Shown here one piece after another: positions 34,596-64,000 of a DNA stretch of 64,000 nucleotides. The position numbers were made by a program, and so were the translations under genes. The notes under the pieces were generated by a model. The model was not told the DNA's origin, searched no databases, and saw only the letters and a list, made by a program, of their open reading frames with translations. Location: the NCBI RefSeq assembly GCF_030013205.1, contig NZ_CP122648.1; one strand, 5' to 3'. This DNA comes from Escherichia coli. Lineage in GTDB: Bacteria > Pseudomonadota > Gammaproteobacteria > Enterobacterales > Enterobacteriaceae. Every line of letters starts with the position of its first letter. Within the stretch, counting starts at the first letter, position 1.

Positions 34596-34630
34596 TAAAA
34601 TAATAAAAAAAGCCCGTGAATATTCACGGG
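34596..34630 (-). terminator. Intrinsic terminator of dsbA
   Basis: Minus-strand hairpin agcccgtgaatattcacgggct followed by a U-run, 3' of the dsbA stop. Confidence 0.6.
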
Positions 34631-34651
34631 CTTTATGTAATTTACATTGAA

Positions 34652-35278
34652 TTATTTTTTCTCGGACAGATATTTCACTGTATCAGCATACTGCTGAACA
34701 AAAACATCCATATTGCTGGTATCCATACCCTGCGGATTCAGCTGATATTTACCGTTAACAAACATCGCCGGAACACCACGCAATTGCACGTCAGCTGCAG
34801 CTTTTTCCTGCTGAGCGACCAGAGATTTCACCACGAAGCTGTTCCACGCCGCGTCGTACTCTTCACCTTTAATACCTGCGTTGATAAATACATCGCGGAT
34901 ATCAGATGCTGAACGAATAGTCTGGGTTTTCTGTACGCCTTCAAACAGCGGAACAGTCACTTTGTCTTCCACGCCCAGCGCCATCGCCACAGCCCATGCC
35001 TGAGTCAGATCTTTGCCCAGATCACCACCCATGAAGTTGACGTGGTATTTAGTCATCTTCACGCCTTCCGGCAGTTTTTTCTTCACGTTATCAGAAATAT
35101 GCAGAACTTCTTCAAACTGATAGCAGTGCGGGCAGAAGAAAGAGAAAAACTCCAGCACTTGCGGCGCGCCAGCTACCGGTTTTTCCAGGGTAGTGTACTG
35201 TTTACCATCTTCATACTGCGCCGCCGATGCGCTAAACGCTAAAACTAAACCAGCCAGCGCCAGCCAAATCTTTTTCAT
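34652..35278 (-). CDS. dsbA: Periplasmic thiol:disulfide oxidoreductase DsbA
   Basis: 208-aa [38 protein letters not shown]...; active site CPHC. Confidence 0.97.
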
Positions 35279-35294
35279 GATCTACTCTCTCCGA

Positions 35295-36281
35295 TTAATA
35301 CATAGGTGTTAATTGCAAAGGGGGTTCTTGTAGAACTTTTGCCTGTTCTATAAAAGTCGCCGTCTGTCGCAGCCAGTAATCTTCCCCGGTTAACCACGGG
35401 AAATTTTTCGGGAACGCGGGATCAGCCCAACGCCGCATTAGCCAGGCAAGATAATAAACCAAACGCATGGCGCGTAAAGGTTCAATCAGTCCGATTTCAG
35501 CGGTGTCGAACTCGCTAAATTCTTCATAAGCTTCAATAATAGTTTCCAGTTGCATCCGCTGCTCGGCTTTATCGCCATTGAGCAACATCCACAAATCCTG
35601 AACGGCTGGACCATTACGTGCATCATCCAGATCAACAAACATTGGACCATCGCGCCAGAGAATATTCCCGGCGTGGCAGTCTCCATGTAGCCGCAGAACG
35701 GTGAAATCTTCCCGCCAGTGTGCTGTAACGGCGGCGATCAGCTCATCTGTCGCTTTCAGGAATGCCGCTTTCAACCCGGAAGGTATCAGTGTAGCGTCCT
35801 CAAACAGCTTGCGTGGCTCAATGAGATATTCATTCAGACCGATGGTCGGGCGATGGATAAAAAGCTGTTTGCGCCCCGTCTGGTGCATACGCCCTAAATA
35901 ACGCCCAACCGCTTCCATTTGATCGATATTATCAGCTTCGAACTGGCGACCACCGACGCTTGGAAAAACAGCGAAATAAAATCCCTGATGATTCAATAAA
36001 GTCTGACCGTTAAAGGCCACAGGTGCTGCGACCGGAACTTCATCGTTAACCAGCTGCAACGCAAATTGATGTTCTTCGAGGATTTGATCGGCTGTCCAAC
36101 GTTCAGGACGATAAAATTTGACGACAAAACGTCGACGATCTTCGTCCTGAAATTGATAGACACGGTTTTCATAGCTGTTAAGCGGGGTAAGACCGGAATC
36201 CACCCGGATCCCTTGCTCAAACAGAGCATCCATGATGGTATCCGGGTGTAGTGTCTGGAAAGTAAAAGCGCTGTTGTTCAT
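35295..36281 (-). CDS. srkA: Stress response Ser/Thr kinase SrkA (YihE/RdoA)
   Basis: 328-aa ORF; kinase-fold motifs (HGDCHAGNILW, DLDD). Confidence 0.93.
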   Translation of the reverse strand: MNNSAFTFQTLHPDTIMDALFEQGIRVDSGLTPLNSYENRVYQFQDEDRRRFVVKFYRPERWTADQILEEHQFALQLVNDEVPVAAPVAFNGQTLLNHQGFYFAVFPSVGGRQFEADNIDQMEAVGRYLGRMHQTGRKQLFIHRPTIGLNEYLIEPRKLFEDATLIPSGLKAAFLKATDELIAAVTAHWREDFTVLRLHGDCHAGNILWRDGPMFVDLDDARNGPAVQDLWMLLNGDKAEQRMQLETIIEAYEEFSEFDTAEIGLIEPLRAMRLVYYLAWLMRRWADPAFPKNFPWLTGEDYWLRQTATFIEQAKVLQEPPLQLTPMY

Positions 36282-36346
36282 CCCATCATCCGGAAAACAT
36301 TACGAATGATGAAGGATATCATTTCACGATGATTTTGGTGGCACCG

Positions 36347-36361
36347 CTTACAAGCTTTTAC
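36347..36361 (-). promoter_or_regulatory. Candidate CpxR box upstream of srkA-dsbA
   Basis: Minus strand reads GTAAA-agctt-GTAAG, resembling the CpxR tandem GTAAA(N5)GTAAA consensus; dsbA is a known Cpx regulon member. Assignment by motif only. Confidence 0.35.
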
Positions 36362-36627
36362 TCTTTAATTACGCCGCGAGCGCGTAACAGCGCCGTTTTG
36401 AAGTCTTCTTCATAATCTTTCTGCAAACCCGGGATCACCGCATCTTTCGCGGAATCACGCATTTTCAGGTGATAGATCAGAATGTCATCCGTCAAATCCG
36501 CCAGTTCGCCGTCAAAACCTGACTCTTTCGCCAGTTTCTGCAAAAATTGCAGCAGGTTAAGGTCTGGCTCTTTTTGCCAGGCTGGCTGGAGGAGTTCAAT
36601 AACTTCATTCAGACGTTTACATTTCAT
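36358..36627 (-). CDS. yihD: DUF1040-family protein YihD
   Basis: ORF 36358..36657 trimmed to [23 protein letters not shown]; 89 aa. Confidence 0.88.
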
Positions 36628-36696
36628 AGTAATGCTCCTTACTCTTGAGACAGACACGTTAGCAGGGTCAATCCCACAATAAAAGAGGCGATATCG

Positions 36697-37281
36697 GTGA
36701 ATCTGATGACGACGATAACAGGCGTTGTGCTGGCGGGCGGTAAAGCCAGACGAATGGGCGGCGTAGATAAAGGATTGCTGGAATTAAATGGCAAACCGCT
36801 GTGGCAACATGTCGCTGACGCGCTTATGACGCAGCTCTCTCACGTCGTGGTTAATGCTAATCGTCATCAGGAAATCTATCAGGCAAGCGGTCTGAAAGTG
36901 ATTGAAGATTCACTGGCGGATTACCCAGGCCCTCTGGCAGGAATGCTTTCAGTAATGCAGCAGGAAGCTGGTGAGTGGTTTTTGTTTTGTCCGTGCGATA
37001 CGCCTTACATTCCCCCAGATTTAGCCGCCCGGCTTAATCATCAGCGCAAAGATGCGCCTGTCGTGTGGGTCCATGACGGTGAACGCGATCACCCGACTAT
37101 TGCTCTGGTAAACCGCGCTATTGAGCCTTTATTACTGGAATATCTGCAAGCAGGAGAACGCCGGGTAATGGCATTTATGCGTCTGGCTGGCGGTCATGCG
37201 GTTGATTTCAGCGATCATAAAGATGCATTTGTTAACGTGAATACGCCAGAGGAGCTTGCCCGATGGCAGGAAAAACGATGA
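36697..37281 (+). CDS. mobA: Molybdenum cofactor guanylyltransferase
   Basis: 194-aa ORF; N-terminal [11 protein letters not shown] nucleotide-binding motif. Confidence 0.95.
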
Positions 37282-37890: not shown

Positions 37891-38010
37891 ATGCCTGGCA
37901 GTTCCCTACTCTCGCATGGGGAGACCCCACACTACCATCGGCGCTACGGCGTTTCACTTCTGAGTTCGGCATGGGGTCAGGTGGGACCACCGCGCTAAGG
38001 CCGCCAGGCA
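37891..38010 (-). rRNA. rrfA: 5S ribosomal RNA
   Basis: Minus strand reads TGCCTGGCGGCC...GGAACTGCCAGGCAT over 120 nt, matching E. coli 5S rRNA with at most one mismatch to my recollection. Confidence 0.95.
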
Positions 38011-38102
38011 AATTCTGTTTCATCAGACCGCTTCTGCGTTCTGATTTAATCTGTATCAGGCTGAAAATCTTCTCTCATCCGCCAAAACATCTTCGGCGTT
38101 GT

Positions 38103-41007
<2,905 letters not shown>

Positions 41008-41190
41008 TCACAACCCGAAGATGTTTCTTTCGATTCATCATCGTGTTGCGAAAATTTGAGAGACTCACGAACAACTTTCGTTGTTCAGTGTTTCAATTTT
41101 CAGCTTGATCCAGATTTTTAAAGAGCAAAACTTCGCAGTGAACCTTTGCAGGTACACTCTGAAGTATTTTTTATTTAATCACTACAGAGA

Positions 41191-41266
41191 TGGTGGAGCT
41201 ATGCGGGATCGAACCGCAGACCTCCTGCGTGCAAAGCAGGCGCTCTCCCAGCTGAGCTATAGCCCC
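41191..41266 (-). tRNA. alaT: tRNA-Ala (anticodon UGC), rRNA spacer
   Basis: Minus strand reads GGGGCTATAGCTCAGCTGGGAGAGCGCCTGCTTTGCACGCAGGAGGTCTGCGGTTCGATCCCGCATAGCTCCACCA. Confidence 0.95.
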
Positions 41267-41308
41267 ATAACATGTAGTTAAAACCTCTTCAAATTTGCCG
41301 TGCAAATT

Positions 41309-41385
<77 letters not shown>

Positions 41386-41453
41386 GTAGAGGTTTTACTG
41401 CTCATTTTCATCAGACAATCTGTGTGAGCACTTCAAAGAACGCTTCTTTAAGG

Positions 41454-42995
<1,542 letters not shown>

Positions 42996-62980: not shown

Positions 62981-63371
62981 TTTCCTCTTAGTCTATATTT
63001 GAGATGGTGAGTGAACGAGTGCGTTTTGCTGCCATCTCTGTCCCCCAAAAAATAATCAGTATGAATTGATTGGAGAGCACGACTCCGCTATTTGACCTTA
63101 AGAAAGTCGGCAAGTAATAGTCATAAGTGAGTCTCTTCACTGGCAGACACCTTAGAGATTTACCATCAACTCCCATTCTCAAACAAACATTAATTATTAT
63201 CAACACATTCACATTAATTATAAATTATCTCAGACCTTCCTGATAAAAAGATATTAAAGTGAAACATTTTGTTTTTCACATTTTAGTTCATCCCTTTTAG
63301 GCGTAAATAAAGGTAAAAAATAACAATACTATTTTTCTTTCACAAAAGAATTAACAAAAGGTTTTTCAAGG

Positions 63372-64000
63372 ATGAGTGATATTATTTACCTGAACATAAC
63401 CGGAGAACAACAAGGATGTATTTCCTCTCGTTGTGGAACGAGCGCATCAATAGGTAATCGCTGGCAGATTGGCCATGAAGATGAAATCTTCGCGTTCTCG
63501 CTCTCTAATAGTATTACGAATACAGGCAAAGGGTCACAATTGCATGGCCTTAGTTTCTGTAAATTGATTGACAAAAGCTCCCCGTTACTTATTAACGCTA
63601 TTAACAATAACGAGCAGTTGTTCATGGAGTTTGACTTCTATCGGATCAATAGATTTGGTCGATGGGAGAAATATTACAACATTCAACTTCGCGGCGCGCT
63701 CTTATCAGCAATCAATCACCTGTTTACTGAGAACAATCTGGATACAGAAACCATCACTGTCAGTTATGAATATATACTCTCCAGGCATCTGATTGCTAAT
63801 ACTGAATTTAGTTATTTGGCATTTCCCGATAACTACAACCGTCTGTTTATACCACGGCCAAAAACTAAAGATGATAATGGCCTCAAAACACTCAATAGTA
63901 AAGCGGTTGGCAGACTGCTTGCTGCTGGCGGCATATACAATGGGAATATCGAAGGATTCAGGGAAACAGCAAACAAGTTGGGAGGAGATGCACCTGCTGG
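63372..64000 (+). CDS. Hcp-like (type VI secretion tube protein family) ORF with C-terminal extension; 3' end beyond the window
   Basis: ATG at 63372, open to the window end (at least 209 codons, checked codon by codon). N-terminus MSDIIYLNITGEQQGCISSRCGTSASIGNRWQIGHEDE... and internal LSFCKLIDKSSPLLINAINNNEQLFMEFDFYRINRFGRWEKYY match Hcp hallmarks (GHEDE, KxIDKSSPxL, FxFYRIN). An Hcp domain is normally complete by about 150-160 aa; this ORF continues (…IPRPKTKDDNGLKTLNSKAVGRLLAAGGIYNGNIEGFRETANKLGGDAPA…). Low-GC relative to flanking core genes. Not in the ORF track because no stop lies in the window. Confidence 0.7.
   Translation, partial: MSDIIYLNITGEQQGCISSRCGTSASIGNRWQIGHEDEIFAFSLSNSITNTGKGSQLHGLSFCKLIDKSSPLLINAINNNEQLFMEFDFYRINRFGRWEKYYNIQLRGALLSAINHLFTENNLDTETITVSYEYILSRHLIANTEFSYLAFPDNYNRLFIPRPKTKDDNGLKTLNSKAVGRLLAAGGIYNGNIEGFRETANKLGGDAPA

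Follow-up and report, generated by a model that had tools for sequence, protein, structure and literature searches.

A known CpxR box upstream of srkA-dsbA in Escherichia coli overlaps the yihD stop codon and lies at fixed spacing from a candidate extended -10 element

The pho boxes of PhoB and the sites of OmpR are direct repeats that accommodate a dimer of the response regulator, and they lie beside or in place of a poor -35 element at promoters with a functional -10. CpxR boxes are built on a similar plan, being defined as two direct-repeat GTAAA pentamers with a spacer of 5 nt (sometimes 6). Tandem GTAAA pentamers with a 5-nt spacer are found in the boxes of cpxP/cpxR (GTAAAACAACGTAAA), ppiA (GTAAAATTAGGTAAA) and skp (GTAAAACCTGGTAAG). 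Upstream of the srkA-dsbA operon, a CpxR-P footprint was reportedly obtained by Pogliano et al. in 1997, and dsbA is said, after work by Belin and Boquet in 1994, to be transcribed partly from the promoter of the gene upstream of it.

The gene dsbA was among the first three to be recognised as CpxR-regulated. It is cotranscribed with yihE (srkA) under CpxRA control (PMC9663540), and both srkA and dsbA are included in the CpxR regulon of RegulonDB. The exact 15-mer GTAAAAGCTTGTAAG appears in PMC9600279 Table S1 as a known CpxR site, that of srkA (yihE), with De Wulf et al. 2002 (J Biol Chem 277:26652) given as its source. A full-text search for the 15-mer found it in no main text; it is present in that supplement. 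The CpxR box upstream of srkA-dsbA is already known, and there is nothing new in the site itself. Its position relative to the neighbouring genes, its conservation and the promoter that it may serve are described here.

The window, that is the whole stretch of 64,000 nucleotides analysed, is E. coli chromosome with the gene order mobA / yihD-srkA-dsbA. At 95-100% identity, a 1,551-bp stretch around the box has matches in 5,425 of 5,426 complete E. coli genomes; its RefSeq annotation comprises dsbA, srkA, yihD and mobA. MG1655 carries the same box unchanged at 4042335-4042349, and no indels separate the two strains in this region. Three nearby differences from MG1655 were found: T/C at 36343, A/G at 36310 and one srkA codon. 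The features referred to below are as follows.

34652..35278, minus strand: dsbA, the second gene, 16 nt past the srkA stop
35295..36281, minus strand: srkA (yihE/rdoA), the first gene of the regulated unit
36306..36307, minus strand: predicted start of transcription (about MG1655 4042389-4042390), placed by means of the -10 and the conserved CATTCG block
36313..36321, minus strand: candidate extended -10, TG-a-TATCCT (TG at 36321-36320, hexamer at 36318-36313), from conservation and fixed spacing
36336..36341, minus strand: -35 position, CCACCA, with no -35 consensus
36347..36361, minus strand: CpxR box GTAAA-AGCTT-GTAAG, two direct-repeat pentamers with starts 10 bp apart
36358..36627, minus strand: yihD, from the RefSeq annotation mapped onto the window; last codon GAG and stop TAA at 36363-36358
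36697-37281, plus strand: mobA

Beyond these genes, a complete rRNA operon (37893-42995, minus strand) contains 16S, two tRNAs, 23S and 5S, with a StyR-44 match in the spacer. It lies just past mobB and converges on mobAB, which fits the K-12 map around rrnA.

An earlier note on this DNA had claimed a tandem GTAAA box on the minus strand, lying partly inside the yihD 3' end. GTAAA-N5-GTAAG is indeed present there: read directly from the sequence, the minus strand from 36361 to 36347 is GTAAAAGCTTGTAAG, which matches the CpxR consensus at 9 of 10 positions. The interval assigned to it, 36343-36361, covers the 15-mer and also takes in, at its low end, four bases outside the box that read CGGT on the minus strand. 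The overlap with yihD is real and amounts to only 4 nt, namely G36361, the third base of the Glu89 codon GAG, and the TAA stop at 36360-36358; the other 11 of the 15 box bases are non-coding. The box and srkA are on the same strand, with the srkA ATG (36281) 66 nt downstream of the box end.

The window holds two exact matches to GTAAA-N5-GTAAR where 0.21 would be expected; 2 of 100 shuffles gave as many. The consensus with one mismatch allowed showed no enrichment in the window (4 observed, 3.6 expected). Pattern matching by itself is therefore only suggestive, and the case for the box rests on its rank, its conservation and the literature.

The CpxR motif scan that the earlier note had called for was carried out with a matrix derived from PMC9600279 Table S1, using 40 of its 41 known CpxR sites and leaving out that of srkA. 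The box scored 13.3 with this leave-one-out matrix (known sites, 2.1 to 20.0, median 14.0) and ranked 3rd among the 127,972 window positions on both strands. No other strong CpxR-type site was found by the scan within 34600-36700, the 2.1 kb that hold yihD, srkA and dsbA; the next best match there scored 8.7, and 73 positions of the window score 8 or more. A second CpxR site inside srkA, sought as an explanation for the stronger response of dsbA, was likewise not found, no match there exceeding 8.7, which is background level.

The same scan placed GTAAACGTCTGAATG, at 36606-36620 (minus strand) within yihD codons 3-8, at a score of 6.9. It corresponds in E. coli to the motif GTAAACGCCTGAATG, which a Salmonella paper took for yihE-dsbA in building its CpxR weight matrix, while the genome scan of that paper gave GTAAAACCTTGTAAG. 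The sequence GTAAACGTCTGAATG inside yihD is a weak match and is probably not a functional CpxR site.

The best matrix match of the whole window was a perfect consensus, GTAAATAAAGGTAAA, at 63303-63317 (plus strand) with a score of 18.6. A gene starting at 63372, 55 nt downstream of this match, is annotated as tssD (type VI secretion tube protein, Hcp) and runs past the window end. This region is AT-rich accessory DNA found in 848 of 5,426 E. coli genomes, with IS1 adjoining in some. CpxR control of another Hcp gene, hcp2B, has been published for avian pathogenic E. coli (APEC). Identity of the tssD-linked box at 63303 with the published hcp2B site was considered and rejected: the hcp2B promoter primers are absent from the window, and the tssD box would thus be a different target.

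Conservation was assessed in a single scan of species-representative genomes, which recovered 80 Enterobacteriaceae loci with SrkA 78-99% identical. GTAAA-N5-GTAA[G/T] was present in all 80 species, 61-66 nt before the srkA ATG. The pentamers are invariant except for the last base, which is G in 73 species and T in 7, and the spacer occurs as AGCTT, ACCTT, AGGTT, TGCTT or AGCAT. Among the sampled E. coli strains, polymorphisms affect the spacer or positions downstream of the box, and none was seen in the pentamers or the -10. The conservation of the box exceeds that of neighbouring neutral positions: none of the 80 species departs from GTAA in the second pentamer, and the non-coding columns on either side are variable.

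On the yihD side, part of the conservation of the first pentamer could reflect coding constraint. The yihD stop is TAA in all recovered genes, and the codon before it is GAG in all 78 other species, whereas Glu elsewhere in yihD is encoded by GAA in 65% of cases; a few codons further upstream, wobble positions are free to vary. The synonymous positions of yihD codons 87-89 and the stop (ATT AAA GAG and TAA, 36358-36369, minus strand) are 95-100% fixed in about 80 species, and the conserved block reaches about 8 nt upstream of the 15-mer, into yihD. A GTAAT at 36372-36368, at N6 spacing, was considered as a third CpxR half-site and found unconvincing, its wobble A being present in only 63% of species.

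Downstream of the box, the sole other strongly conserved non-coding block is TGaTATCCT, which is invariant or nearly so in the 80 species. All 81 sequences have exactly 28 nt separating the box from the -10 hexamer, and length variation (29-32 nt) is confined to the stretch between the -10 and the srkA ATG. The hexamer at the -35 position, CCACCA or CCACCG, shows little conservation and also varies among E. coli strains. TGaTATCCT has the attributes of an extended -10 element, with TGn, an A at position 2 and a T at position 6 of the hexamer, and a weak or absent -35. No promoter was called at TGaTATCCT by a simple consensus promoter scan. The first -10 candidate, TGaAATGAT at 36326-36318, was rejected because its TG is not conserved, and TGaTATCCT was taken instead.

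Fixed 28-nt spacing together with the lack of a -35 is what is expected of an activator site coupled to a -35-less promoter. The arrangement points to an activator-dependent sigma-70 promoter with an extended -10 at srkA, with a start predicted near 36306-36307 that would put the box centre at about -47/-48.

These features are accommodated by the following mechanism. Upon envelope stress, the sensor CpxA phosphorylates CpxR, and a CpxR-P dimer of the OmpR/PhoB winged-helix type would bind GTAAA and GTAAG head-to-tail, one helical turn apart. The site would lie just upstream of the -35 position of a promoter with an extended -10 and no usable -35. Bound CpxR-P would then provide the missing upstream contact for RNA polymerase and raise srkA-dsbA transcription. 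Our analysis establishes the sequence of the box, its position, its likeness to known sites, its conservation and its spacing, and the catalogue entry and the CpxR dependence of the operon come from published work; we infer which sequence is the -10, where transcription starts, where the box is centred and that polymerase is recruited by CpxR-P. Overall, we put the probability at roughly 0.9 that CpxR-P recognises this box at the srkA (yihE/rdoA) promoter, from which, as the distal promoter, dsbA is transcribed too, and that CpxR-P aids sigma-70 at a -35-less extended -10 promoter.

The published expression data are in keeping with a box that lies, by its position here, upstream of a CpxR-dependent transcription unit. 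In published RNA-seq of a cpxR deletion, dsbA and srkA changed by log2 -1.96 and -0.97, respectively, in LB, and by -1.08 and -0.07 in ethanol. In addition, srkA was up 3.5-fold in cpxA24 and was at 0.90-fold upon NlpE overproduction. One ChIP-exo study has srkA and dsbA absent from its CpxR direct targets. Cpx induction of srkA is modest and condition-dependent. The claim of the earlier note that the box serves the srkA/dsbA promoter is supported by the identity of the catalogued 15-mer, the drop upon cpxR deletion, the Salmonella site at an equal distance, the rank in the matrix scan, the presence in 80 of 80 species and the spacing to the -10, and none of the findings indicates a CpxR site elsewhere for this operon.

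CpxR might bind the box and act mainly in some way other than activation of the srkA promoter, for instance by blocking read-through from yihD, or the site might be shared with another OmpR-family regulator. Read-through is plausible given that no terminator is predicted between yihD and srkA, and the smaller effect of cpxR deletion on srkA than on dsbA, as well as the conserved stretch of about 8 nt on the yihD side of the box, would suit such a role. Against this, regulation is positive for both srkA and dsbA, the invariant distance to the -10 is the prediction for an activator site, and nothing in the data points to a second regulator. Neither a roadblock role nor a second regulator has direct support, and we regard this alternative as improbable.

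An RNA-level element in place of a protein-binding DNA site, be it a yihD terminator, a structure in the srkA leader or a small RNA, is suggested by the position at a gene end and by a 10-bp hairpin that can be drawn in the leader (36312-36283). No terminator-like site was found between yihD and srkA, the fold energy was no better than that of shuffled sequence (z = -0.37), Rfam gave no match at E-values up to 1, and the box is unpaired in the predicted fold. The leader hairpin would occlude the ribosome-binding region; it showed no compensatory pairs in 81 sequences and was rejected for lack of covariation. The terminator scan, fold z-score, Rfam search and covariation analysis thus revealed neither a terminator nor a structured RNA at the yihD 3' end, and we give this explanation very little credence. 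Within the same leader, ATTCG (36303-36307, minus strand) and CGGA (36290-36294, minus strand) are invariant across the 80 species. They are able to pair, and no compensatory changes supporting a structure were seen across these species.

The reading of the box as a chance match whose conservation merely reflects the end of the yihD reading frame, to which the unenriched one-mismatch consensus and the 4 of 15 bases taken up by the yihD codon and stop lend some colour, is largely refuted and very unlikely given the 11 non-coding bases, the invariant second-pentamer GTAA amid varying flanks, the fixed synonymous base of the GAG codon, the constant distance to the -10 and the listing as a known CpxR site.

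With the box taken as the CpxR-P site of the srkA promoter, the published RNA-seq presents one difficulty: dsbA is more CpxR-dependent than srkA, though the sole strong CpxR site is upstream of srkA. A single upstream site combined with an independent dsbA promoter does not predict the stronger dsbA response. Read-through from yihD or differences in mRNA stability might lie behind it. A sigma-70-like match that the consensus scan called inside srkA, at 35451-35478 (minus strand; TTTACG, 16 nt, TATTAT), precedes the dsbA ATG by about 175-200 nt and may be the dsbA-proximal promoter that the literature describes.

The pattern of fixed positions in yihD invites a more speculative proposal, namely that regulatory site and yihD reading frame place mutual constraints on one another: the box would dictate the last codons and stop of yihD (ATT AAA GAG TAA) throughout the family, and the conserved block, with a third GTAA repeat one turn upstream (GTAAT at 36372-36368), might reflect CpxR-P binding to more than two repeats. 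Read-through from yihD would perhaps be affected as well, which could be part of the reason for the greater CpxR dependence of dsbA. We consider this proposal unlikely.

The scan recovers a textbook Cpx regulon site from raw sequence and adds little that is new. Across 80 Enterobacteriaceae species, neither the box nor the way it overlaps the yihD stop nor the 28 nt between it and the candidate extended -10 changes. The locus would serve as a clean illustration of how the binding site of a regulator can hold a synonymous codon and a stop codon constant.

Compared with the described systems, the box shows no differences from the catalogued CpxR site of E. coli K-12 srkA (yihE)-dsbA, having the same 15-mer at the same locus. 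Relative to the boxes of cpxP, ppiA and skp, it has one departure from the perfect consensus and overlaps the stop codon of the upstream gene. The departing second pentamer, GTAAG, also occurs in the catalogued skp and bamE sites. The srkA box scores in the middle of the range (13.3; the highest of the known sites has 20.0), in line with the modest induction. In Salmonella Typhimurium, the site predicted for yihE (STM3996), GTAAAACCTTGTAAG, is at the orthologous position, 66 bp upstream, and was flagged 'coding region'; the pentamers are the same and the spacer is ACCTT rather than the AGCTT of the E. coli box. Pseudomonas aeruginosa dsbA has been reported to be without any CpxR site, and the arrangement is therefore lineage-specific. 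The sites of PhoB and OmpR differ from the srkA box in the regulator and in the sequence of the repeats, and the geometry at srkA, with a centre at about -47/-48, is the one predicted from the candidate -10.
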